DNA of 64,000 bases from Escherichia phage FL23: the sequence record PP400787. One strand, given 5' to 3'. The position numbers were made by a program, and so were the translations under genes. Below, in pieces: positions 3,386 to 48,882 of the stretch; positions within the stretch are counted from its first letter, which is position 1, and each line of letters begins with the position of its first letter. The notes under the pieces were generated by a model. It made no database searches, was not told the origin of the DNA, and was given only the letters and a program-made list of their open reading frames with translations.

Positions 3386-4354
3386 ATGAAAACTGTAACT
3401 ATCAATAAGGGTATCTACTTCGGTAAAGAAATCTCTGGAACTTTTGAGCTCTTAGGCGAATGGTTCCCAGATAATGCTCCGGTAGATGCACAAGGAGATG
3501 GTAAAGTTTTTGTTGAAATTGACGGTAAACGTCGCGGTGTTTGGGTTTACAAATCAGACATTTCATATGATGGTGTAAAAGTTGAAGAAGTTAAAGAATC
3601 ATATGAAGATATGAAAACCCGCATTAATAAAAGATTTAATGTTATGGGAATGATGACGAATGGTATTATTAACGGAAACATTCGTTCATTAATTATCTCT
3701 GGTGCGGCGGGTATTGGTAAAACGTATTCTTTAGATAAAGCTTTGAATAAAGCAAATGATAATGGATACATTGAGTATAAAAGCATTAATGGTAAAATCT
3801 CTGGTATCGGTCTTTATGAACAGCTTTGGAATAATCGTGAAGAGAATTCTGTCCTTTTGATTGATGATGTGGATGTTTTCTCTGATATGGACATTCTTAA
3901 TCTTCTGAAAGCTGCTCTGGACACTGGAGAGACCCGTAAAGTCTGCTGGAGCACTGCATCTTCTTACTTAGAAGAAAAAGGCATTGAGCGTGAGTTTGAA
4001 TTTAAAGGAACGATTGTTTTTATCACAAACGTTGACATTGACCGCGAATTAGACCGTGGTACTAAACTTGCTCCACATTTACAAGCATTAGTGTCCCGCT
4101 CAGTTTATTTAGATTTGGGTGTTCACACTAATGAAGAAATTATGGTCAGGGTTGAAGATGTTATTCTTTCAACTGACATGATGCAAAAGCGCGGTCTTTC
4201 TGATGAAGAAACTTATAAAGCATTATCATGGATGAAAGTCAATGTTAATCGTTTACGCAATGTTTCACTGCGTACTGCTCTTTATCTTGCTGACTTTATT
4301 ATGACCGACAAAAACCATTGGGAAGAAATCGCTGAAACGGTATTATTAAAATGA
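3386..4354 (+). CDS. AAA+/P-loop ATPase (323 aa)
   Basis: Walker A GAAGIGKT, Walker B VLLIDDVD; ATG 6 nt after GGAG of the conserved leader. Confidence 0.6.
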   Translation: MKTVTINKGIYFGKEISGTFELLGEWFPDNAPVDAQGDGKVFVEIDGKRRGVWVYKSDISYDGVKVEEVKESYEDMKTRINKRFNVMGMMTNGIINGNIRSLIISGAAGIGKTYSLDKALNKANDNGYIEYKSINGKISGIGLYEQLWNNREENSVLLIDDVDVFSDMDILNLLKAALDTGETRKVCWSTASSYLEEKGIEREFEFKGTIVFITNVDIDRELDRGTKLAPHLQALVSRSVYLDLGVHTNEEIMVRVEDVILSTDMMQKRGLSDEETYKALSWMKVNVNRLRNVSLRTALYLADFIMTDKNHWEEIAETVLLK

Positions 4355-5070
4355 AAAAATATTTTACTATCTATAAAACTGAAATATTAAATTTAAAGAC
4401 AGGTATTAAGAAATACTATTATGGTCGACATATAACTAATAATACCAATGATTCGTATGTTGGTAGTGGAAATTATATAGAACGTGTAAAAGTGTCAAAT
4501 GACCACATATTATCAAAAACGGTTTTAGAAGTTTTTGATAATTATGATAAAATGGTACAAGCTGAAATATTATATATCATGGCAGGTAAATTGAAATATG
4601 GGAAAAACTGTGTTAACCTGTCATACGGGGGTGAAGGAGGAAAGGTTGCAGATGAAACTAGGATAAAATGCAAAAAGCATTCTATAAATTTATGGAAAAA
4701 TCCTAATCATATACAGCATATGAAGAAAAAGATGAAAGAGGTCACATCCACGCCGGAAGCTAAATTAAACACTTCAATAAAAACTTCGCAACGATATAAG
4801 GACCCGGTTTTTGTTAGAAAAGTTAGTAATATTATTAAAAAGAAACTAAGCAATCCTGCAGTAAAAGAAAAGCATATTAATGGAATTAAAGCTGCAAAGC
4901 GTTCTCATTTAACTATATGGCAGTATGAAGATGAATTATTCGAGCTCTGGAAAGAAACTAAATGTGGATGGAGAAAATTTACAAAGGAAGCTATAAAACA
5001 CGGATATCCAAATGAACCGTATCGTAGTATGGTATCAACTTTTCAGAAAAGACATTTAGAAGAATCCTAA
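4351..5070 (+). CDS. free-standing GIY-YIG homing endonuclease (Seg-like)
   Basis: N-terminal IYKTEILNLKTGIKKYYYGRH ... YVGSG module shared with the segF-like ORF at 40822; K/N-rich C-terminal DNA-binding repeats; ATGA overlap with upstream gene. Confidence 0.6.
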   Translation: MKKYFTIYKTEILNLKTGIKKYYYGRHITNNTNDSYVGSGNYIERVKVSNDHILSKTVLEVFDNYDKMVQAEILYIMAGKLKYGKNCVNLSYGGEGGKVADETRIKCKKHSINLWKNPNHIQHMKKKMKEVTSTPEAKLNTSIKTSQRYKDPVFVRKVSNIIKKKLSNPAVKEKHINGIKAAKRSHLTIWQYEDELFELWKETKCGWRKFTKEAIKHGYPNEPYRSMVSTFQKRHLEES

Positions 5071-5515: not shown

Positions 5516-6043
5516 ATGAACGCTAAAGATATTTTCAACCTGGTAAATTACAACGATGGTAAATTTAAATCTGAAGCACAAAGCAAGTTCTTTAATGACA
5601 TCTCAATCGGAGGTGAAATCACGGTTGATGGAGGACAAATTTACAAATCCCGTTGGAATTGGATCGTTATTATCGATGAGATTGGTATTGTAGAAATTTA
5701 CAAGAATACGAATAAAAATCGTACATTACACTGGTCTCGTGATACTAACGAACAATACAAAAAGGATAAAGCATCTAAATTATCTCGTGTAACTCAAGAA
5801 GATATTGAGTTCATCAAGAAAGATATTTTGATGTATGATAACTTAATTGCTGAAGAGCAAGCTGTTATTGATAAATTTGATGAGATTAAAGCTTCTCGTG
5901 AAATTCCTGATTTTATGAAAGAATCAGTAAATGAACGATACACTCTCATTTCAGAGCGTATCGAAACTTACAAAAAGCAAAGAGCTGAACGCCAAAATAC
6001 TCTTCGGAAGTTTGAAGAACGGTTAAAGACGGTACTCGCATAA
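5516..6043 (+). CDS. hypothetical protein (175 aa)
   Basis: ORF track; ATG directly after cassette SD. Confidence 0.5.
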   Translation: MNAKDIFNLVNYNDGKFKSEAQSKFFNDISIGGEITVDGGQIYKSRWNWIVIIDEIGIVEIYKNTNKNRTLHWSRDTNEQYKKDKASKLSRVTQEDIEFIKKDILMYDNLIAEEQAVIDKFDEIKASREIPDFMKESVNERYTLISERIETYKKQRAERQNTLRKFEERLKTVLA

Positions 6044-6098
6044 CCGCTTTATACCAAGGATGGTATAATGGTTCTAAGCCCTTTTAATTGAGATTATT

Positions 6099-6332
6099 AT
6101 GAAACGGTTGATAATTAAAAGATTGAATTTATTGATATGTTGTTTATGTGTAGTAGTTGCATATGGTTATTACGCAATTAATGATTATATGCACTATAAA
6201 GATTATGATGTTACTGTAGTTAATACCCTTACAGGAACTCAAGGAAAGGGGTCTAGTTTATTGCTGTATATGAACTCAAAGACGGTTATAGATTTAGCGA
6301 ATATATTTCACCGGAGATGTATTCTTCAATAG
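6099..6332 (+). CDS. small hydrophobic protein (77 aa)
   Basis: ORF track; N-terminal hydrophobic segment LNLLICCLCVVVAYGYYAI. Confidence 0.4.
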   Translation: MKRLIIKRLNLLICCLCVVVAYGYYAINDYMHYKDYDVTVVNTLTGTQGKGSSLLLYMNSKTVIDLANIFHRRCILQ

Positions 6333-6499
6333 AAAAAGGTGATAATATTACTGTAAGTTTACGTCCTTTCGACGTAAAACAGACATGGTTTGATAATATT
6401 GTTTGGTTCTTTGGAATGGTATTAGTTCAATCTGTGTGTGGTGCTTATATAGTCTGTTCTATCTTATTCTGTATATTTAGTAAAATTGAAATTGAGTGA
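6317..6499 (+). CDS. small hydrophobic protein (60 aa)
   Basis: ORF track; C-terminal hydrophobic segment. Confidence 0.3.
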   Translation: MYSSIEKGDNITVSLRPFDVKQTWFDNIVWFFGMVLVQSVCGAYIVCSILFCIFSKIEIE

Positions 6500-6506
6500 G
6501 GAAAAT

Positions 6507-7394
6507 ATGTCAGTAGTAATTAATAATGTCAATGCAGTAATTAAATCTTTAGTTAATAAAAAATTGAATGAATGGACTGTACTTTGTCGTGGAGAGCCAG
6601 ATAAATTTTTTCATAGATTTAACCCAACTTTGGATTTGAATGTTATTGACAGAGATGTTCATGCCAAAATTTTAGATAAATTTAAAGTTGATATTGGATT
6701 TGGATTAGAAAAACATTTACAGCGAACAAACGGGTCTGGAATGAGTTTATCTAATCGCATTATGAAAGCCCTTAATAAAATTGGAGCGTTGTCTCGTATT
6801 AATGCGAGTGAAATTCTTCGTAATTATAATAAAGGATATGACCTTTATGGTCGACTAATGCCGAAGTTATCATTTGACCAAATGATTGCAGATTTGTGGG
6901 AAAATCAGCGACGATTATTAGCATTAGGCGCTCGATTGGCTAAAGGTCTAGATAAACAAATGATTTTTAAGACCAATAATACAGAAGACCTTAAATGCTT
7001 TAAATTTAGTATTCGCGGAGATGATTATTACATCAGAGCTCACTCTACAGATTATGTTAATATGGGGCATCATCTCTGTTTAGCTTTTGAAGTTTTAAAA
7101 GAAGCTGGAACATTAGAATATACGTCTGGTGCTAAATGCCCGATTGGTTCAAATTGTATTTTGATTTATCGCCCGGATGAATCCAGTTCAACTAAATTGC
7201 CTACGAAACCTGTACCAGTTCGTAGTAATGAAAAACATTCTGAACAAATTGATTATTTTAATAAACAGATTGAAGAGCTGAATATTTCTATTCAACAATA
7301 TGATGATGAAATTTTCAGACTATCTGGATTGAGTAGTAAAGCTAAATCTGAGCGTGAAAAGTTAATTAAAATTGTTGATTTACTTAAATCTTAA
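6507..7394 (+). CDS. hypothetical protein with C-terminal coiled coil, tandem paralog 1 of 4
   Basis: ATG after GAGG; central RRLLALGARLAKG-type motif and heptad-like C-terminal tail shared with next three genes. Confidence 0.5.
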   Translation: MSVVINNVNAVIKSLVNKKLNEWTVLCRGEPDKFFHRFNPTLDLNVIDRDVHAKILDKFKVDIGFGLEKHLQRTNGSGMSLSNRIMKALNKIGALSRINASEILRNYNKGYDLYGRLMPKLSFDQMIADLWENQRRLLALGARLAKGLDKQMIFKTNNTEDLKCFKFSIRGDDYYIRAHSTDYVNMGHHLCLAFEVLKEAGTLEYTSGAKCPIGSNCILIYRPDESSSTKLPTKPVPVRSNEKHSEQIDYFNKQIEELNISIQQYDDEIFRLSGLSSKAKSEREKLIKIVDLLKS

Positions 7395-7402
7395 GGAACA
7401 CC

Positions 7403-8431
7403 ATGAAAACTCGTTCTCAAATTGAAGATATGGTTCGTACTGCCAGCGATACTCGTAATGTTATGACATTTTTGTGTGAAAATAATTTAGACCCTGATAA
7501 AGTTAATCGTGCTATTCATCACTTTAAATATCTAAATAGCAGTGAATGGTTACGTCATTTTAGTAAAGCGGGGTATATTACACAAATGACTGCTCGTGAG
7601 CAGCTCACCGATTTCTGTAAAACTATTGATTATAAAAATCCTCTATTTGTTCAAGGCGTTGGTCAAAGTAAGGTCGATTTATCATCTGGATTTTTCAATC
7701 CAAATCATTATCGTATTGAATGGAGATTTATTGCTCTGTTCCGTAGACAATTAAAGCAAATTTTATCAACTGCGAGTCGATTGAAAGGTTCTGATATTAA
7801 CTTAAAGAACCTGAAATTTGATGGTTATACTCTTCAGATGGAAGTAAGACCATTAAAAGAAAATAACAGAACTGCACGAATTAGCTTTAAACCTAATACA
7901 AAAAATTCTCTTTCAATTTGCGAATGCCTTAAATCGCAGTTGACAGAAGCATTTAAGTATATGGACGTTGTTGCTGCTGTCCAGTCTAAGATTTTACCTC
8001 GTTTTGAGCGATTTAAATTAGACACAACAACATATGAACTTGATATGATCGTTTCATTTAAATACGATTTTTTGAGAAAGGACGAAGTCACGCAAGAGAA
8101 AAAGCAAGAAGTGCAAGATAACTTAAATTTAAATTTATCCAATTACTCATCAAACGATCCTAAATTTTGGATGTATAGTTCAGGTAATAAGGATGCATGG
8201 AAATTCAATAAAGTGAATTTTCTTCCTGTTGAAAATCCGAGTCTTAAACCTGTTGAAAAATGGCATGCCGATGCGATTGAGAAGTCTATCAAGGCAGTAG
8301 ATGATGAACTCGTTAAAGCAACTAATGAAGTGCTAGAAGCTGAAAAGATGCTAGAAAAAGCTCAAGAAAAAGTCAAAAATCTTACGAAGCAACGTTCTAA
8401 ACTGAACAATGCACTAAATGCACTAAACTAG
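7403..8431 (+). CDS. hypothetical protein with C-terminal coiled coil, tandem paralog 2 of 4
   Basis: ORF track; motif RRQLKQILSTASRLKG; coiled-coil tail. Confidence 0.5.
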   Translation: MKTRSQIEDMVRTASDTRNVMTFLCENNLDPDKVNRAIHHFKYLNSSEWLRHFSKAGYITQMTAREQLTDFCKTIDYKNPLFVQGVGQSKVDLSSGFFNPNHYRIEWRFIALFRRQLKQILSTASRLKGSDINLKNLKFDGYTLQMEVRPLKENNRTARISFKPNTKNSLSICECLKSQLTEAFKYMDVVAAVQSKILPRFERFKLDTTTYELDMIVSFKYDFLRKDEVTQEKKQEVQDNLNLNLSNYSSNDPKFWMYSSGNKDAWKFNKVNFLPVENPSLKPVEKWHADAIEKSIKAVDDELVKATNEVLEAEKMLEKAQEKVKNLTKQRSKLNNALNALN

Positions 8432-8460
8432 TTTACTTTTCCACAAGGATGTGGTATAAT
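8431..8460 (+). promoter_or_regulatory. T4-type early promoter
   Basis: GTTTAC-ttttccacaaggatgtgg-TATAAT; same element upstream of rIIA.1 at 54166. Confidence 0.55.
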
Positions 8461-8488
8461 GTTCTTACTTTCTACTGAGGAGATTAAT

Positions 8489-9490
8489 ATGACTCGTAAC
8501 GAATATATCAAATCATTCAATAGTGTTATTGATGATAAAGCTATACCGATGTTTGGTCAAAATATCGTTCTTTCTATTATCAATCAATGGCTCAATAGTG
8601 TTGATGCAAGTATTGTTTCTTCTGCTAAATTTATTCATGAAATTCGTAAAATTTCTAGCCGTGTAGATAAAGATAATATCAAGAAAACCTTTAAAGAGTC
8701 TCGTCTTCTTTCATATTTGGTTAATCGGGATATTCTTGGTAATTTTGGGAAAGAAATTAAACGAACCAAAGATGTAGTAGGATATAATTGGTTCGGTGAT
8801 GTTAATTCTTATCATCTTAATAATAAAGAAGACCCTGAGAATATTTTTACTCGTCGTTGGATTAGTAATTTCAGACTTTTTAAGAAACAAATTCTAAAAT
8901 CAGCTTCTAAATTATGTTATGGCGATTATCGTCAAATTCATCCTTTGGCTTCTGATATGATTATCATAAAAGAATATGAACTTGATAAAAATAAAGCAGC
9001 TATTTTTGTGAATTATGAATTTTTTACACCAGAAGCTAATCAAAAGAACATTAATAAATTTTTCTCAATTGCTAGTGATACAACTCGTCAGTTAGAGACT
9101 GCATTACTTTGTATGGAAACGGTAGAAAATATTCATACTTATCCTTTTAAGAATATATGCGGTTGGGAAGGATATAAAATTGTAGTTAGTCTTCGTGAAG
9201 TAAAGTGCGCGTACTCACCTACTAATAAAGAAATTTATCAACAAAAATGTGAAGAAATTGTGAATACCCCTAAAGAAGAAACTACTCTTGAGGAACTAAT
9301 GGATAATCTTGATGATTCACCTGAATCGGTAGAAATTCGTCCAGAAGTTATTGCATTAGAAAAAGCTTATAAAGAAGTTCTAGAAATTTCTAATAAAGCA
9401 CAGAAAGAATATGAGCAGGCTAAAAGGATTTGGGAAGAATCTGTTAATCGCCTGGATCGTCTTGAACAAGCTTTACAGTTAATTAAGTAA
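8489..9490 (+). CDS. hypothetical protein with C-terminal coiled coil, tandem paralog 3 of 4
   Basis: ATG after GAGGAG; motif KKQILKSASKLCYG; coiled-coil tail. Confidence 0.5.
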   Translation: MTRNEYIKSFNSVIDDKAIPMFGQNIVLSIINQWLNSVDASIVSSAKFIHEIRKISSRVDKDNIKKTFKESRLLSYLVNRDILGNFGKEIKRTKDVVGYNWFGDVNSYHLNNKEDPENIFTRRWISNFRLFKKQILKSASKLCYGDYRQIHPLASDMIIIKEYELDKNKAAIFVNYEFFTPEANQKNINKFFSIASDTTRQLETALLCMETVENIHTYPFKNICGWEGYKIVVSLREVKCAYSPTNKEIYQQKCEEIVNTPKEETTLEELMDNLDDSPESVEIRPEVIALEKAYKEVLEISNKAQKEYEQAKRIWEESVNRLDRLEQALQLIK

Positions 9491-9542
9491 TTTAAAGCCA
9501 AGGATGGCTCGGAGTATAAACCATTAACCAAGTGAGAAGAAC

Positions 9543-10472
9543 ATGAAAACTCGTAAACATTATATTGATTATTTTGACAGTCTTATTACTAAACATCGTA
9601 ATTATCAGATAGGACACAGGGCAGTAATCAATAATATTCTTCGTGATTTCCTTCAATATGTTGGCCAGGAAAATCATATCTGTAAAGATACTCAAAACGC
9701 TTATTCTCATTCGTTAGGCAATTTGCTTCAATGGTTTAAACGTTCTCGTCTGTTATCTTCTACTGTAGCTAGTGATAACATTAAAAACTTTATGAAGCCG
9801 AGCTTCATTAAATCTGAGACATCTATAACCGATTTGGTTGAATTTACTATTGTTAACGATGTTAAAAAGACCCATTTGGCTGATTGGTTATCTACCATTC
9901 CCGAAACTAAATTTGCTGATAAATTCGCTTGTCAATTCAATGACCAAGTGAATATGCTTTTTAAGCATGCTCGTAAACTATTTACCGCGGGCGATGACCG
10001 TACAAATACAGTTCATGTTAAGGATTGGGTTATTGCTGATGAAGTAACACACAAGCCAGGTGGTTCATCAGTATTAATTAATATCCAGGTTCCTTATTAT
10101 TACTCACGTAATCTCGGCACCATGACAGCTAGAGAAATTAATAAGCACAACAAAATTATTCGTTCGTTGTCTTATAAACTCTGCACGATGGTGGAGATGA
10201 TGGACGTAGTGGAAATGTATGACGAAACCGAAGATAATGGTTCAATGCTGTACAGTTCACGCATTCTAATTAAACTGAAGAACCCTAATACATATAAGCA
10301 AGTTGTAAAAGAACCTAAAGCAGAAAAGGCTGATAATCTGAGTGAAGAACGCGAATATCTCAATGCTCGTTTGATTGAAGTTGAAGCCCAAATTGCAGAA
10401 CACACCAAATTGTTAAAAGCTCTTAATGCAAAAGCAAATGGTTTACGTAATGCTATTGAGGTATTGAAATGA
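9543..10472 (+). CDS. hypothetical protein with C-terminal coiled coil, tandem paralog 4 of 4
   Basis: ORF track; motif FKHARKLFTAGDD; coiled-coil tail. Confidence 0.5.
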   Translation: MKTRKHYIDYFDSLITKHRNYQIGHRAVINNILRDFLQYVGQENHICKDTQNAYSHSLGNLLQWFKRSRLLSSTVASDNIKNFMKPSFIKSETSITDLVEFTIVNDVKKTHLADWLSTIPETKFADKFACQFNDQVNMLFKHARKLFTAGDDRTNTVHVKDWVIADEVTHKPGGSSVLINIQVPYYYSRNLGTMTAREINKHNKIIRSLSYKLCTMVEMMDVVEMYDETEDNGSMLYSSRILIKLKNPNTYKQVVKEPKAEKADNLSEEREYLNARLIEVEAQIAEHTKLLKALNAKANGLRNAIEVLK

Positions 10473-10783
10473 AAAAGCGTCTATTAGAAGACATTGCAGC
10501 TTCAAGTAATTCCAGTTTAATTAAAATTATTATGGCCGGTGAAGAAGACGATTTGGAAATGCGTGGAAAGATTCATGGTTGTGATGATTATAGCAGCCCT
10601 ATTAATTGGGATTCTGTAATGGTCATGGTTGAACGCCGCGAACGTGCTTCTAAAAACGTTCCTAATTGCCCTGAATGTGGAACTGAACAGGTGCAATTGG
10701 TCCATTGGCAGACTAGTAATCTTCGTTATAAATGTCGCCATTGTAAACACCGATTTGACCGAGAAGAAAATGACCAAGCGTAA
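10469..10783 (+). CDS. small zinc-ribbon protein (104 aa)
   Basis: CPECG ... CRHCKH four-Cys pattern; ATGA overlap with upstream gene. Confidence 0.45.
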
Positions 10784-11012
10784 AGAATATATGGAGACTG
10801 CTGAAAAGGCAGTCCGTGAATTAGCAATAGCTTATTATAATGAACATGGTAAATTTCCTGATAGATACAGCGTGCTTAAATCTGCTTTAACTCGTTCATA
10901 TAAAAATATGCTATCAGAAGTAAGTGATATTATATACAAACATAAAGAACAAACGGGCCAAAGTCTTGATTACGACGAGACTTTTAAACAAGTATTAGGA
11001 ATTAAGGAATAA
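10770..11012 (+). CDS. hypothetical protein (80 aa); start uncertain
   Basis: In-frame ATG inside track ORF 10629-11012 chosen to reduce overlap with previous gene. Confidence 0.35.
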
Positions 11013-11013
11013 T

Positions 11014-11277
11014 ATGTTTAAAGTATATGGTTATGATAGCAACATCCACAAATGCGTGTATTGCGATAATGCAAAACGTCTCTTGACTGTGAAGAAACAG
11101 CCGTTTGAATTTATCAACATTATGCCGGAAAAAGGTGTTTTTGATGATGAGAAAATTGCTGAGCTTCTGACTAAACTAGGTCGTGATACTCAAATAGGCT
11201 TGACAATGCCTCAGGTATTTGCTCCTGATGGAAGTCATATTGGTGGATTTGACCAATTGCGGGAATACTTTAAATGA
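11014..11277 (+). CDS. nrdC: glutaredoxin (T4 NrdC thioredoxin)
   Basis: 87 aa; MFKVYGYDSNIHKCVYCDNAKRLL with CxxC; matches recalled T4 NrdC. Confidence 0.9.
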   Translation: MFKVYGYDSNIHKCVYCDNAKRLLTVKKQPFEFINIMPEKGVFDDEKIAELLTKLGRDTQIGLTMPQVFAPDGSHIGGFDQLREYFK

Positions 11278-11489
11278 TGCTCGAAGGAACTGACTATATT
11301 CATGATTACCGCGGAAGCGCGGTATATGTAGGTGATGAAGTTGCAGTTTATTATGGGTATGGAACTTTGATGACAGCCAAGGTTATTCAAATTAAAAATA
11401 ATCGTGCTAAACTCGAAGTTTATTATTCTAATGGTGAAAAGTCTATTTCTAAGTGGAAATACGGTGATTGCATGGTCAAACTGGGGTAA
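11274..11489 (+). CDS. hypothetical protein (71 aa)
   Basis: ORF track; ATGA overlap with nrdC. Confidence 0.4.
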   Translation: MMLEGTDYIHDYRGSAVYVGDEVAVYYGYGTLMTAKVIQIKNNRAKLEVYYSNGEKSISKWKYGDCMVKLG

Positions 11490-12311: not shown

Positions 12312-12785
12312 ATGTTATTGACTGGCAAATTATATAAAGAAGAAAAACAAAAATTTTATAATGCACAAAACGGTAAATGCTTAATTTGCCAACGAGAACT
12401 AAATCCTGATGTTCAAGCTAATCATCTTGATCATGACCATGAATTAAATGGACCAAAAGCAGGAAAGGTACGTGGATTGCTTTGTAATCTTTGCAATGCT
12501 GCAGAAGGTCAAATGAAGCACAAATTTAATCGTTCTGGCTTAAAGGGACAAGGTGTTGATTATCTTGAATGGTTAGAAAATTTACTTACTTACTTAAAAT
12601 CCGATTACACCCAAAATAATATTCACCCTAACTTTGTTGGAGATAAATCAAAGGAATTTTCTCGTTTAGGAAAAGAGGAAATGATGGCTGAGATGCTTCA
12701 AAGAGGATTTGAATATAATGAATCTGACACCAAAACACAGTTAATAGCTTCATTTAAGAAGCAGCTTAGAAAGAGTTTAAAATGA
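12312..12785 (+). CDS. 49: endonuclease VII (Holliday-junction resolvase)
   Basis: 157 aa; Cys-rich CLICQ ... HLDHDHE ... CNLCN zinc site; matches recalled T4 gp49. Confidence 0.85.
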   Translation: MLLTGKLYKEEKQKFYNAQNGKCLICQRELNPDVQANHLDHDHELNGPKAGKVRGLLCNLCNAAEGQMKHKFNRSGLKGQGVDYLEWLENLLTYLKSDYTQNNIHPNFVGDKSKEFSRLGKEEMMAEMLQRGFEYNESDTKTQLIASFKKQLRKSLK

Positions 12786-13319
12786 CAATTGAAAAAGAAA
12801 TTGAAGGATTGATTCATAAAACTAATAAAGACCTTTTAAACGAGAATGCTAATAAAGATTCTCGTGTTTTTCCAACTCAACGGGACCTTATGGCTGGTAT
12901 TGTGTCTAAACACATTGCCAAAAATATGGTCCCGTCTTTTATTATGAAAGCGCATGAAAGCGGAATTATTCATTTCCATGATATTGATTATTCCCCTGCT
13001 CTTCCATTTACTAATTGCTGTTTAGTAGATTTAAAAGGAATGCTTGAAAACGGATTTAAGCTAGGTAATGCACAGATTGAAACTCCTAAATCAATTGGCG
13101 TTGCTACTGCAATTATGGCACAAATTACTGCACAGGTTGCTTCTCACCAATATGGCGGAACTACATTTGCTAATGTCGATAAAGTACTTTCTCCTTATGT
13201 TAAACGCACCTATGCAAAACATATTGAGGATGCAGAAAAATGGCAAATCGCTGATGCGTTGAATTATGCTCAATCTAAAACAGAAAAAGACGTATACGAT
13301 GCATTCCAGGCGTATGAGT
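12782..13319 (+). CDS. nrdD: anaerobic ribonucleoside-triphosphate reductase, exon 1
   Basis: N-terminal NrdD sequence; reading frame ends just after QAYE; exon end placed after a U to satisfy group I rule and a 605-aa product. Confidence 0.75.
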
Positions 13320-13532
13320 TAATTTAATTCAGGCTCATGTAAAACCGGTCTAAACGGGGAACCTCTCTAGTAGACAATCCCGTGCTAAATGTTTTTAGAA
13401 AAACTAAATGCCTAACGACTAACCGTGATGAATGTAGCGGTGTAGAATAGAAGCTAATGCTATTCGAAACGGCCGGCATCGAAAGATGAAGATATAGTCT
13501 AATCTGCATGGCGACATGCAGCAGTCATCTTG

Positions 13533-13540
13533 TATAAATA
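13533..13540 (+). promoter_or_regulatory. T4 late promoter (TATAAATA) inside intron, upstream of the intron endonuclease gene
   Basis: Exact TATAAATA 30 nt upstream of the HEG ATG. Confidence 0.5.
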
Positions 13541-13569
13541 AGATTATCTTATGAATACGAGGTGAAACA

Positions 13570-14340
13570 ATGAAATGGATAAAAAGACGTTGTACTAAAA
13601 TAAAAGATAAAGACGCATTTACATACTTAGTTAAGTTTTCTAATGGCGACATTTATATCGGTTATAAAAAATTTAGAACAATTAAAAACAAGCCCACAAA
13701 CTGGAAAACTTACACAACGTCATCTAAGTATATAAATGAACGCTTAAAAACTGATACACCTACTAAATGGATAATTTTAAAAACATTTGATAGTTATAAA
13801 GATGCATTAAAACATGAAGAAGAGGTCATACGTAAATATTTTTATAGCAAAAAATGTTTAAATAAATCCATAGGCGGTAAAAAGTTTTATAAGCATCCGG
13901 ATACTGAAGAACATATTCAAAAATTAAGAGATGCTCATAAGGGTAAAGTGTTATCCGAATCTCATAAAAACAATATAAAATCTTCTGTAGCTGAATATTA
14001 TGCTAAAAACGGAAGATCTAAGGAACATGTGCAAAATAATATCAATAGTCGAAAAAGTAAAAAACAAATATCGATAAAGCTTAAAAATAAAACTTTTAGA
14101 AGTTTTAAAAAAGCAGCGGAATATTTAAATTGCACTGAAAGTGAAGTCGAAACTCATCCTCTTGTTTTGAGTATTAAGACTACTATTCATAAAGTTCCTG
14201 AATATGTGGTTGTTGACGGTATTAAGTATACGTCTTATATAGAAGCAGCTAAAGCGCTAAATTTTCATCCTAGCACTATAAAAGAACGTTGCATATCTAT
14301 GGACTATCCAAATTTTGTTGTTTCATATAAACGGGCATGA
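13570..14340 (+). CDS. intron-encoded GIY-YIG homing endonuclease (I-TevII-like)
   Basis: 256 aa ORF wholly inside the nrdD intron; YLVKFSNGDIYIGYK GIY-YIG-like module; size close to T4 I-TevII. Confidence 0.65.
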   Translation: MKWIKRRCTKIKDKDAFTYLVKFSNGDIYIGYKKFRTIKNKPTNWKTYTTSSKYINERLKTDTPTKWIILKTFDSYKDALKHEEEVIRKYFYSKKCLNKSIGGKKFYKHPDTEEHIQKLRDAHKGKVLSESHKNNIKSSVAEYYAKNGRSKEHVQNNINSRKSKKQISIKLKNKTFRSFKKAAEYLNCTESEVETHPLVLSIKTTIHKVPEYVVVDGIKYTSYIEAAKALNFHPSTIKERCISMDYPNFVVSYKRA

Positions 14341-18921: not shown

Positions 18922-19137
18922 ATGAACGAAGCTCTTATTAACGATTTGCGTCTTGCTGGATATGAAGTAAATACAAATGGCATTGGTTTAACTCAAATTG
19001 AAGGAAACGGATTCATCCTTGAGTATGAATTTAGCCAATGGTGGTTATATGCCAATTACGGCGAATTGATTGAATATGTTGACCAATTTGATTCACTAGA
19101 TGCAGCTCTTGAAGCGGCTAAGTTGATGAATGTATGA
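18922..19137 (+). CDS. hypothetical protein (71 aa)
   Basis: ORF track. Confidence 0.4.
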   Translation: MNEALINDLRLAGYEVNTNGIGLTQIEGNGFILEYEFSQWWLYANYGELIEYVDQFDSLDAALEAAKLMNV

Positions 19138-46381: not shown

Positions 46382-47697
46382 CATTTGATGATTTGACCGA
46401 AGGCCAGAAAAATGCCTTTAACATTGTTATGAAGGCTATTAAAGAAAAGAAACATCATGTAACTATTAATGGACCTGCTGGTACTGGTAAGACTACTCTT
46501 ACCAAGTTCATCATTGAAGCTTTAATATCTACGGGTGAAACTGGTATTATTTTAGCAGCTCCTACTCATGCAGCTAAAAAGATTCTTTCAAAACTATCAG
46601 GGAAAGAAGCAAGTACTATTCATAGTATTCTTAAAATTAACCCAGTAACATATGAAGAAAATGTTCTTTTTGAACAGAAGGAAGTACCAGATTTAGCTAA
46701 ATGCAGAGTATTAATCTGCGACGAAGTGTCAATGTATGATAGAAAGCTATTTAAAATTTTGCTTTCAACTATTCCACCATGGTGTACTATAATTGGAATA
46801 GGAGATAATAAGCAAATTAGACCTGTTGACCCAGGAGAAAACACTGCTTATATCAGTCCATTCTTTACACATAAAGATTTTTATCAGTGTGAACTCACTG
46901 AAGTTAAACGCAGTAATGCTCCTATTATTGATGTAGCTACTGATGTTCGCAACGGTAAGTGGATTTATGATAAAATTGTTGACGGGCATGGAGTACGTGG
47001 ATTTACTGGTGATACCGCTTTACGCGATTTTATGGTAAATTATTTTTCAATCGTAAAATCACTAGATGATTTGTTTGAAAATCGCGTAATGGCATTTACG
47101 AATAAATCTGTTGACAAGTTAAATAGCATTATTCGCAAAAAGATTTTTGAAACTGATAAAGATTTTATCGTTGGTGAAATTATTGTAATGCAGGAACCAT
47201 TAATTAAAACATATAAAATTGATGGAAAGCCTGTGTCAGAAATTATTTTTAATAACGGACAATTAGTTCGTATTATAGAAGCAGAGTATACATCAACGTT
47301 TGTTAAAGCTCGTGGTGTTTCTGGAGAATATCTAATTCGTCATTGGGATTTAACAGTAGAAACTTACGGCGATGATGAATATTATCGTGAAAAGATTAAA
47401 ATAATTTCATCTGATGAAGAGCTGTATAAGTTTAACTTATTTTTAGGTAAAACGGCAGAAACTTATAAAAATTGGAATAAAGGTGGAAAAGCTCCATGGA
47501 GTGATTTTTGGGATGCTAAATCGCAGTTTAGTAAAGTGAAAGCACTTCCTGCATCAACATTCCATAAAGCTCAGGGCATGTCTGTAGACCGTGCTTTTAT
47601 CTATACGCCTTGTATTCATTATGCAGATGCTGAACTAGCTCAGCAGCTTCTTTATGTTGGTGTAACACGTGGTCGTTATGATGTGTTTTACGTATGA
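46378..47697 (+). CDS. dda: SF1 DNA helicase Dda
   Basis: 439 aa; Walker A GPAGTGKT; T4 Dda length and position. Confidence 0.9.
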   Translation: MTFDDLTEGQKNAFNIVMKAIKEKKHHVTINGPAGTGKTTLTKFIIEALISTGETGIILAAPTHAAKKILSKLSGKEASTIHSILKINPVTYEENVLFEQKEVPDLAKCRVLICDEVSMYDRKLFKILLSTIPPWCTIIGIGDNKQIRPVDPGENTAYISPFFTHKDFYQCELTEVKRSNAPIIDVATDVRNGKWIYDKIVDGHGVRGFTGDTALRDFMVNYFSIVKSLDDLFENRVMAFTNKSVDKLNSIIRKKIFETDKDFIVGEIIVMQEPLIKTYKIDGKPVSEIIFNNGQLVRIIEAEYTSTFVKARGVSGEYLIRHWDLTVETYGDDEYYREKIKIISSDEELYKFNLFLGKTAETYKNWNKGGKAPWSDFWDAKSQFSKVKALPASTFHKAQGMSVDRAFIYTPCIHYADAELAQQLLYVGVTRGRYDVFYV

Positions 47698-47718
47698 TTA
47701 AATTCGAGGAAGCTATTC

Positions 47719-47964
47719 GTGGAAATAACTAAAGACCAGTTTTATCTGCTCCAAGATAAAGTAAGCGAAATTTATGAAATAGCTTATAGCAAAAATCGCA
47801 AAAATGTGAAAACTGAATCAGGCAAGTTAATGCTTCAATTGGAAGAAATCGAACGAGATTTGATTGCGTTAGAATTCTTTTGTGGTGAAGTAAAAACTGT
47901 TACAATCAGTGATTACATTTTAGGTGAAATTAGCCATCTTTATAAGGCGGTTATTAATGATTGA
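47719..47964 (+). CDS. hypothetical protein (81 aa), paralog of next ORF
   Basis: GTG start; LEEIERDL ... ISDYILGEISHLYKAV resembles next ORF. Confidence 0.4.
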   Translation: MEITKDQFYLLQDKVSEIYEIAYSKNRKNVKTESGKLMLQLEEIERDLIALEFFCGEVKTVTISDYILGEISHLYKAVIND

Positions 47965-48199
47965 ATTAAGTTGGTGTCAGTTTAAATCTCTTATGACAAA
48001 TGTTAAAGCTGTCATTGAGGAAAATCCAGGACCTGATAATGTTACTATTCGCGAAAAAGCTTCAAAGATAGTATACAGTCTTGAAGAGATACAAAAAGAT
48101 ATTGAATCTATGACAAAATTTATTGATGAGCCCATTAATAAAGTTTATATCCAAGATTATACTGTAGGTCAAATTCGCGATTTAGCAAGGAAAATTTAA
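47924..48199 (+). CDS. hypothetical protein (91 aa)
   Basis: LEEIQKDI ... IQDYTVGQIRDLARKI; paralog of previous. Confidence 0.4.
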   Translation: MKLAIFIRRLLMIELSWCQFKSLMTNVKAVIEENPGPDNVTIREKASKIVYSLEEIQKDIESMTKFIDEPINKVYIQDYTVGQIRDLARKI

Positions 48200-48882
48200 T
48201 GTTTGATTTTATTATAGATTTTGAAACAATGGGAAGTGGTGAAAAAGCAGCTGTTATTGATTTGGCTGTTATTGCCTTTGACCCTAATCCAGAAGTAGTT
48301 GAAACATTTGATGAATTAGTTTCACGTGGCATTAAAATCAAATTTGATTTAAAAAGCCAAAAAGGACATCGTCTTTTTACTAAAAGCACTATTGAATGGT
48401 GGAAAAATCAGTCTCCTGAAGCTCGAAAAAATATTGCGCCATCAGATGAAGATGTAAGCACCATCGATGGTATTGCAAAATTTAATGATTACATCAATGC
48501 GCATAACATCGATCCTTGGAAATCTCAAGGCTGGTGCCGTGGAATGTCATTTGATTTTCCAATTTTAGTCGATCTCATTCGCGATATTCAACGTCTTAAT
48601 GGCGTTTCTGAGAATGAACTTGACACATTTAAGTTAGAACCATGTAAATTCTGGAATCAGCGTGATATTCGTACCAGAATTGAAGCACTTCTTCTTGTTC
48701 GTGATATGACCACGTGTCCTCTTCCAAAGGGAACTTTAGATGGATTCGTTGCACATGATTCTATTCATGACTGTGCGAAAGACATCCTGATGATGAAGTA
48801 TGCTTTGCGATATGCTATGGGTCTTGAAGATGCTCCGTCAGAGGAAGAGTGCGATCCTCTGTCTCTTCCAACAAAACGATAA
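48199..48882 (+). CDS. dexA: exonuclease A
   Basis: 227 aa; DEDDh-type exonuclease residues; T4 DexA length and position. Confidence 0.8.
   Translation: MFDFIIDFETMGSGEKAAVIDLAVIAFDPNPEVVETFDELVSRGIKIKFDLKSQKGHRLFTKSTIEWWKNQSPEARKNIAPSDEDVSTIDGIAKFNDYINAHNIDPWKSQGWCRGMSFDFPILVDLIRDIQRLNGVSENELDTFKLEPCKFWNQRDIRTRIEALLLVRDMTTCPLPKGTLDGFVAHDSIHDCAKDILMMKYALRYAMGLEDAPSEEECDPLSLPTKR

Follow-up and report, generated by a model that had tools for sequence, protein, structure and literature searches.

A tandem array of four early genes in a T4-like Escherichia phage, nrdC.6 to nrdC.3, encodes one superfamily of candidate counter-defence proteins

A 64,000-nucleotide stretch of Escherichia phage FL23 DNA (sequence record PP400787), referred to here as the window, contains four consecutive genes that an earlier note, made from the sequence alone, had described as a tandem array of paralogues. 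All four open reading frames (ORFs) are present on the + strand exactly where that note had placed them, and alignment to the annotated T4 record identifies them as the orthologues of T4 nrdC.6, nrdC.5, nrdC.4 and nrdC.3, the + strand of the window being the reverse complement of the T4 map. The evidence presented below places the four proteins in a single superfamily, and the likeliest reading of the four genes is a family of early counter-defence proteins that is undergoing diversification. The array consists of the following genes.

6507..7394, + strand: nrdC.6 orthologue, 295 amino acids (aa), the most diverged member of the superfamily; ORF, match to phrog_2257 and T4 alignment
7403..8431, + strand: nrdC.5 orthologue, 342 aa; match to Pfam DUF7235 (E 1e-125) and 94.4% identity to T4 NrdC.5
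8489..9490, + strand: nrdC.4 orthologue, 333 aa; phrog_1435; AlphaFold model with a predicted local distance difference test score (pLDDT) of 82.8 and a predicted template modelling score (pTM) of 0.68
9543..10472, + strand: nrdC.3 orthologue, 309 aa; phrog_1435; hhalign match to nrdC.4 of 97.6%, E 3e-12

Over bases 6000-11300 the window matches Escherichia phage FL44 (PP400790.1, Tequatrovirus) at 100% identity, and its identity to many T4-like phages is about 96%. At the protein level, identity to T4 is 97% for nrdC.6, 94% for nrdC.5, 95% for nrdC.4 and 60% for nrdC.3. Gene order within the array is the same as in T4, and so is its position between nrdC.7/nrdC.8 and nrdC.2/nrdC, so that the window genes are both orthologous and syntenic to T4 nrdC.3-nrdC.6; nrdC.11,.10,.9,.8 and.7 lie upstream, while nrdC.2, nrdC.1, nrdC, pin, gene 49 and nrdD lie downstream. 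The FL44 record labels all array genes “thioredoxin”, which appears to be an annotation carried over from nrdC. The deposited start of nrdC.4, at 8459, is an ATG embedded in the −10 box of an early promoter of T4 type, whereas the ATG at 8489 is served by a GAGGAG Shine-Dalgarno sequence; for these reasons the start at 8489, as the earlier note had it, is preferred.

Pairwise BLASTP among the four proteins yielded a significant match for nrdC.4 and nrdC.3 only (E 4e-7, 26% over 227 aa), and profile methods were therefore needed. Family alignments were built from the same locus in 12 further phages of four genera and compared using hhalign. Shallow family alignments linked nrdC.5 and nrdC.6 only marginally, and the values improved with richer profiles and bridging sequences. 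The nrdC.4 and nrdC.3 families matched at 97.6% (E 3e-12), and nrdC.5 matched the combined nrdC.4 and nrdC.3 profile with 91% probability (E 1e-6, 131 columns), a result that was the same when the last 60 residues were cut off. The nrdC.6 family compared with the other three gave 51% (P 1.5e-4), while comparison of the joint nrdC.5 and nrdC.6 profile with that of nrdC.4 and nrdC.3 gave E 5e-10 in a local run and, in another run, 94.7% (E 6e-8) over 228 columns reaching the C-terminus. The nrdC.8, nrdC.10 and nrdC.11 families and reversed decoys, used as controls, remained at P 0.1-0.7.

When the superfamily profile was run exhaustively with HMMER against 1.84 billion representatives, just 29 proteins were recovered; some of these are distant, full-length members whose plain BLASTP matches connect the families. 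By this route nrdC.6 matches P0172 (1.6e-7) and P0168 (6e-7), P0172 matches P0175 (1e-12), and P0175 matches both nrdC.5 (3e-6) and nrdC.4, the latter over 287 residues. Hidden Markov models (HMMs) built with one family left out recovered the omitted window gene in each case (nrdC.6 2e-11, nrdC.5 1e-17, nrdC.4 8e-17, nrdC.3 3e-13) with no false positives among the 262 window ORFs, and no family member beyond the four was found among the ORFs of the window. All four proteins belong to one superfamily by both profile and fold comparison. The paralogy proposed from the sequence alone is therefore borne out by profile comparisons, bridging homologues, leave-one-family-out HMMs and two AlphaFold models; similarity is seen by pairwise BLASTP for nrdC.4 and nrdC.3 only, and by HMM-HMM comparison for all four.

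The two models were computed for nrdC.4 (39-sequence alignment, pLDDT 82.8, pTM 0.68) and nrdC.5 (31 sequences, pLDDT 76). They agree in the order of secondary-structure elements: N-terminal helices, a beta hairpin, a long helix, a hairpin, a helix, a hairpin, a linker and the C-terminal helix. The resulting domain plan begins with N-terminal helices that vary, continues with an alpha/beta core and a linker that is disordered (residues 261-283 in the nrdC.4 model, 225-278 in that of nrdC.5), and closes with a C-terminal helix. The shared architecture put forward in the earlier note is therefore retained, but its “~250-aa domain” is replaced by three parts, namely the N-terminal helical region, the core and the linker. 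Within T4-type sequences the N-terminal region and linker are the most variable parts, and the core and tail the least. The four strings that had been singled out as a recurring central motif do occupy the same columns of the superfamily alignment, and correspond to the long core helix in both models.

6882..6947, + strand: central motif helix of nrdC.6, MIADLWENQRRLLALGARLAKG, aa 126-147; alignment columns
7721..7789, + strand: central motif helix of nrdC.5, WRFIALFRRQLKQILSTASRLKG, aa 107-129; alignment, model helix 105-127
8846..8923, + strand: central motif helix of nrdC.4, FTRRWISNFRLFKKQILKSASKLCYG, aa 120-145; alignment, model helix 119-142
9912..9998, + strand: central motif helix of nrdC.3, FADKFACQFNDQVNMLFKHARKLFTAGDD, aa 124-152; alignment

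A Foldseek search of BFVD with the nrdC.4 model returned full-length matches at E 1e-4 to 1e-8 that span about ten T4-like genera. These include an nrdC.3 model and JS10 NrdC.6 (E 3e-5), as well as uncharacterised proteins of 300-370 aa from T4-like phages of Acinetobacter (two in Acj61), Enterobacter, Pectobacterium, Erwinia, Yersinia, Serratia and Klebsiella. Among solved structures, the nearest folds to the alpha/beta core of both models are tail terminator proteins, with 100-115 residues aligned at about 3 Å. The fold-comparison values, in two columns, are as follows.

P74-26 terminator: 7.7, 6.1
SaPI1 DUF3168: 7.4, 6.3
T5 p142: 7.2, 6.0
Gene transfer agent (GTA): 7.0, 6.8
lambda gpU: 6.1, 5.7

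Over shorter stretches, comparable scores were reached by designed alpha/beta proteins and by domains resembling the RNA polymerase alpha-NTD, and sequence searches of the PDB revealed no signal to any solved structure. For these reasons the core is called terminator-like here without a claim of membership in that group. Terminator Pfam families gave no match at E <= 1, and sequence kinship to T4 gp15, gp14 and gp19 was tested and rejected (hhalign to gp15, P 0.1-0.6). Unlike terminators, the family genes do not lie in the late tail/neck module and are found in the early nrdC accessory block behind early promoters. In the T6 record AP018814.1 the nrdC.5 orthologue (47493-48512) bears the name “tail sheath stabilizer and completion protein”; the name agrees with the terminator-like fold and is probably an automatic label.

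The heptad-like tails reported in the earlier note were found in all four proteins.

7230..7391, + strand: C-terminal heptad helix of nrdC.6, aa 242-295; best heptad window from aa 247, p 0.02
8252..8428, + strand: C-terminal heptad helix of nrdC.5, aa 284-342; model helix 284-341, pLDDT 84-93
9341..9487, + strand: C-terminal heptad helix of nrdC.4, aa 285-333; model helix 285-332
10338..10469, + strand: C-terminal heptad helix of nrdC.3, aa 266-309; aligns to the tails of the other three proteins, 4-3 hydrophobic spacing read from the sequence

In the models the tail is one uninterrupted helix of 48 residues in nrdC.4 and 58 in nrdC.5 (pLDDT 80-93). For nrdC.6, nrdC.5 and nrdC.4 the best-scoring heptad window falls within it (p 0.01-0.02 against shuffles), while the crude heptad window score of the nrdC.3 tail was not significant. 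Across 31 members the conserved hydrophobic columns, at the a and d positions, keep a strict 4-3 spacing, and periodicity power peaks at 3.5 (1.09, versus 0.33 at 3.6). The T4-type nrdC.5 tail carries an insertion of exactly seven residues (aa 304-310) that preserves the register. A family motif, P-x-x-E..H-A-x-x-I, precedes the tail helix, and all four proteins end in h-x-x-h-L-K (L..A..LK). Where the tail has weak sequence matches in the PDB, most are with coiled-coil proteins (GCN4, geminin, NEMO, Smc). The 3.5 periodicity, the register-keeping insertion and the family motif show that the tail is a conserved family module with a motif of its own, more than a generic coiled coil or helical filler; it probably drives oligomerisation or docking.

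The tail is missing from one annotation of nrdC.6: the T4 reference AF158101 (4103-4930) has a 1-nt deletion in the tail-coding part of the gene, so that the annotated protein ends at 275 aa and lacks the coiled coil; the complete protein of 295 aa is encoded in other T4 records. The neighbouring nrdC.8 (window 5516-6043, 175 aa) ends in a charged helical tail, …YKKQRAERQNTLRKFEERLKTVLA, that loosely resembles the family tail; none of the profile tests gave the resemblance significance (P about 0.2).

Database searches assign the four proteins to three families. Pfam PF23882 (DUF7235) matches nrdC.5 over the full profile (1-307 of 307; 419 bits against a cut-off of 30, E 1e-125), while nrdC.3, nrdC.4 and nrdC.6 do not match it. 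Close homologues of nrdC.4 and nrdC.3 carry a precomputed PF26897, and Mosigvirus-type nrdC.6 homologues carry PF26899. The PHROG assignments follow the same division, with nrdC.5 in phrog_2351, nrdC.4 and nrdC.3 in phrog_1435, and nrdC.6 in phrog_2257. Searches of Pfam, PHROGs, PADLOC and PDB sequences supplied no functional annotation and turned up no family or motif typical of enzymes; the PADLOC models gave a single weak match of coiled-coil type, to BrxC (E 0.0014), over the nrdC.4 tail.

Two spacers of the array and its junction with nrdC.2 carry features that bear on expression.

8432..8460, + strand: T4-type early promoter upstream of nrdC.4 (GTTTAC-N17-TATAAT with TG), containing the stem-loop CCACAAGGATGTGG
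9491..9542, + strand: nrdC.4-nrdC.3 spacer with the common stem-loop motif GCCAAGGATGGC, followed by TATAAA
10469..10783, + strand: nrdC.2, 104 aa, with a zinc ribbon at the C-terminus; ATG start overlapping the nrdC.3 stop codon (AAATGA)

The spacer between nrdC.4 and nrdC.3 is a probable weaker early promoter or PeSL-like cassette. The stop of the last array gene overlaps the nrdC.2 start in every genus examined, as AAATGA in six genera and as TAATG in Mosigvirus, which suggests conserved translational coupling and a possible partnership. The motif CAAGGATG occurs inside short inverted repeats in the promoter spacers at 6055, 8444 and 9499, upstream of nrdC.7, nrdC.4 and nrdC.3 respectively. 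The window holds seven copies where 1.6 are expected, the others lying at 19014, 31907, 42483 and 54179.

Several neighbouring genes depart from the T4 arrangement. Where T4 has nrdC.7 as a single 133-aa gene, window 6099-6499 has two ORFs (6099-6332 and 6317-6499) as the result of a 7-bp deletion close to 6266; the split gene is either a pseudogene or the product of a sequencing error. Between nrdC.10 and nrdC.9, at a position where T4 has no gene, window 4351-5070 encodes a 239-aa homing-endonuclease-like ORF (phrog_314, E 1e-29; N-terminus GIY-YIG-like by eye). Farther downstream, nrdD (window 12782-14340) breaks off after 181 codons and a homing-endonuclease ORF comes next, an arrangement resembling the T4 nrdD intron with I-TevII; in the FL44 record nrdD is annotated in two pieces, along with a homing endonuclease.

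The traced members of the 29-protein family all come from T4-like (Straboviridae-type) phages, and using nrdC.8 as a synteny anchor toward more distant phages returned no records beyond the same 741. Copy number at the locus varies by genus. Marfavirus and Kanagawavirus have a single copy and Tequatrovirus has four; the three copies of Mosigvirus are nrdC.6, an nrdC.5-like gene and nrdC.3, and those of Dhaka- and Gaprivervirus, likewise three, are nrdC.6, an nrdC.5-like gene and nrdC.4. This series from one to three to four copies at one locus, together with the common superfamily, supports the tandem duplication with divergence that had been proposed from the sequence. The array is also subject to fusion and loss. 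Salmonella phage Manna (5215-6252) carries the in-frame fusion nrdC.6(1-269)::nrdC.4(251-333), and P0056 is an nrdC.5::nrdC.3 fusion. From nrdC.5-nrdC.3, phage ACG-C40 retains only an N-terminal stub of nrdC.5 and a remnant of nrdC.3, while Pinarejo has lost nrdC.6 save for its last 47 codons. A further protein, P0063 (173 aa, from an 803-nt contig in the European Nucleotide Archive, ENA), joins an unrelated 120-aa N-terminus, for which no counterpart was found in isolated phages, to a 52-aa tail identical to that of nrdC.5; this unverified lead could reflect module shuffling or a chimeric assembly.

Sequence divergence is distributed unevenly over the array. Three allelic types of nrdC.3 exist, and the window allele is 60% identical to that of T4, 75% to the Mosigvirus type and 94-100% to those of other Tequatrovirus phages. 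Synonymous divergence (dS) between nrdC.3 alleles is about 0.9-1.0 compared with 0.1-0.2 for the region, indicating replacement by recombination. Gene-wide ratios of nonsynonymous to synonymous divergence (dN/dS) are 0.08 for nrdC.6, 0.11-0.21 for nrdC.5, 0.15-0.40 for nrdC.4 and 0.17-0.35 for nrdC.3, as against 0-0.06 for the neighbours nrdC, gene 49 and nrdC.8, the array values being given as 3-10 times those of the neighbours. Since all ratios lie below 1, the array genes are, by this measure, functional but under less constraint than the genes around them.

The one function reported for a member of the family comes from work on T4. Srikant, Guegler and Laub (eLife 2022, PMC9391042), who call nrdC.5 an early gene, found that a T4 clone with deletions failed to plate on ECOR17 unless dsr1 was disrupted, that cloned dsr1 protected MG1655 against this clone, and that T4 nrdC.5 supplied in trans from a plasmid restored plating of the deletion mutant on Dsr1 cells. 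Dsr1 is a SIR2 NADase, and E. coli Dsr1 shares the Avs7 sensor and is triggered by the phage major capsid protein, while another Avs family senses tail terminators (2026 Nature paper, PMC13581612). Beyond PMC9391042, the literature search yielded no additional work on nrdC.3-6 or DUF7235, no NrdC.5 or Dsr1-inhibitor mechanism, no binding data or biochemistry, and no function for nrdC.3, nrdC.4 or nrdC.6. The defence targeting suggested in the earlier note is thus supported for nrdC.5 only, whose T4 orthologue overcomes Dsr1; the specificity diversification it suggested is consistent with raised dN/dS, allelic replacement of nrdC.3, and deletions and fusions.

Taken together, these observations tilt the balance, if only somewhat, toward the view that the four paralogues are early counter-defence proteins that bind and silence host immune proteins. 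The proteins are early products, expressed from T4-type early promoters ahead of the late virion proteins. The window NrdC.5 orthologue, being 94% identical to T4 NrdC.5, would be expected to overcome Dsr1 as the latter does, perhaps by binding Dsr1 directly and blocking it before capsid protein accumulates. The N-terminal region and core may provide recognition and the tail oligomerisation or docking, while nrdC.3, nrdC.4 and nrdC.6 might present the same scaffold to other immune proteins or to other variants of Dsr1/Avs7-type sensors. Duplication, allelic replacement and deletion in a hyperplastic region could then tune the repertoire to the hosts met. Beyond the nrdC.5 phenotype, we infer this mechanism from homology, expression timing and evolutionary behaviour.

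Several points weigh against this proposal. The known function covers one of the four genes, in T4, through a single complementation experiment. The dN/dS of nrdC.6, about 0.08, denotes strong purifying selection, unlike that of a typical arms-race gene. The superfamily link itself rests on bridges from other genera, as leave-one-out detection is lost when the bridging sequences are dropped, and the independence of the two models is incomplete, the alignment used for the nrdC.5 model having included the other families. Finally, the conserved tail and the coupling to nrdC.2 could mean a shared partner or a single complex instead of separate specificities.

This last point leads to a different account, in which the paralogues are subunits of one hetero-oligomeric machine with one function, assembled through their similar heptad tails and possibly including the zinc-ribbon protein NrdC.2. 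Between families no part is better conserved than the tail, which keeps one a/d register and one terminal L..A..LK throughout, the last member overlaps the nrdC.2 start in all genera examined, and in-frame tail-swapping fusions persist in plated isolates such as Manna. We nevertheless consider such a machine unlikely: plasmid-borne nrdC.5 alone restored plating on Dsr1 cells (PMC9391042, whose main text is silent on deletion of the neighbours), Marfavirus and Kanagawavirus have a single copy, and phages are viable without particular members, as in Pinarejo without nrdC.6 and ACG-C40 without nrdC.5-nrdC.3. A similar degree of doubt, perhaps slightly greater, attaches to a housekeeping or host-takeover role apart from immunity, acting for instance on a host factor or on nucleotide/NAD+ metabolism, with the anti-Dsr1 effect being indirect. 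The locus does lie amid the nucleotide-metabolism genes nrdC, nrdD, nrdG and nrdH, nrdC.6 evolves slowly, and part of the core resembles the N-terminal domain of the RNA polymerase alpha subunit, RNA polymerase being the target of many T4 early proteins. However, the searches described above uncovered nothing enzyme-like, the genes are dispensable, having been lost in natural isolates and in an evolved T4 clone, and the sole reported phenotype is specific to Dsr1-carrying hosts.

The terminator-like core raises a third prospect, namely that the proteins are non-activating look-alikes of a conserved virion protein with the tail-terminator fold, made early to occupy shape-recognising receptors of the Avs/Dsr type before the genuine late proteins are present. 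A simple tail-terminator decoy for Dsr1 was considered and is weakened by the finding that Dsr1 senses the major capsid protein (PMC13581612), and look-alikes of this kind are rather improbable. The same slim likelihood is given to a broader form, in which pseudo-ligands made of a terminator-like core and an oligomerising coiled coil would plug Dsr1/Avs7-type and other Avs sensors, each paralogue being tuned to a different receptor. Least probable by far is that the likeness among the proteins reflects chance and coiled-coil composition, with nrdC.4 and nrdC.3 as the only true paralogues. The lack of significance in four of the six pairwise BLASTP comparisons, and the dependence of leave-one-out detection on bridging sequences, would fit that explanation; it is already contradicted by the persistence of profile similarity without the tails, by decoys and neighbouring families that stay at background, by bridges that connect all four proteins at E 1e-6 to 1e-12, and by two models with identical secondary-structure order together with a structural match to NrdC.6.

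Most accessory early genes of the reference phage T4 are without known function, and the paralogy of nrdC.3, nrdC.4 and nrdC.6 to an anti-Dsr1 gene, if correct, makes them three concrete candidate inhibitors of other defence systems. The presence of one to four copies by genus, three nrdC.3 alleles and fusions between paralogues offers a natural series for mapping specificity change on a fixed scaffold. Now that the trigger of Dsr1 is known, a defined inhibitor family would help to account for phage evasion of receptors whose ligands are virion proteins that the phage cannot do without. If pseudo-ligands were involved after all, they would represent a general phage strategy whereby immunity is blinded by disarmed copies of the phage's own parts. 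The gain is incremental, considering that the genes and the nrdC.5 phenotype had been described before, as had the three Pfam families and the three PHROG groups. Set against the searchable literature, the single superfamily, its domain plan, the terminator-like core and the heptad tail with its motif appear to be new, as do the conserved coupling to nrdC.2 and the pattern of copy number and alleles.

Comparison with known systems places the array as follows. Its closest counterpart is T4 NrdC.5 (PMC9391042), of which window 7403-8431 is the orthologue, with the same position and the same DUF7235 domain; nrdC.3, nrdC.4 and nrdC.6 are distant paralogues with the same architecture, while anti-Dsr1 activity has been demonstrated for T4 NrdC.5 only, in an account that does not include mechanism, structure or the paralogue relationship. 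The Pfam families PF23882, PF26897 and PF26899 and PHROGs 2351, 1435 and 2257 already hold nrdC.5, nrdC.4 with nrdC.3, and nrdC.6, respectively, but keep them as three separate families of unknown function, which the present analysis joins under a defined domain plan. Phage tail terminator and completion proteins (lambda gpU, T5 p142, SPP1 gp17-like, DUF3168) provide the nearest solved folds to the NrdC.4 and NrdC.5 core. A working model for NrdC.5, by analogy, is DSAD1 of phage SPbeta, which binds and neutralises DSR2, a defence-associated sirtuin that senses a virion protein (PMC10973363, PMC10981675, PMC11087589); NrdC.5 may bind its sensor in the same manner, although DSAD1 differs in its target, DSR2 sensing the tail tube, and comes from another phage group. 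The stem-loop and promoter cassettes before nrdC.7, nrdC.4 and nrdC.3 resemble the published PeSL cassettes, which have been proposed to mediate gene shuffling in T4-like phages (PMC2839356, PMC4122927). As in the hyperplastic regions with PeSL cassettes and the anti-defence islands of T4-like phages (the IP locus and dmd-tifA-adfA; PMC2839356, PMC4122927, PMC9391042), an accessory early block with promoter/stem-loop cassettes undergoes frequent gain, loss and swapping of genes; whereas those islands consist of unrelated small genes, the array in the window consists of paralogues of one family.

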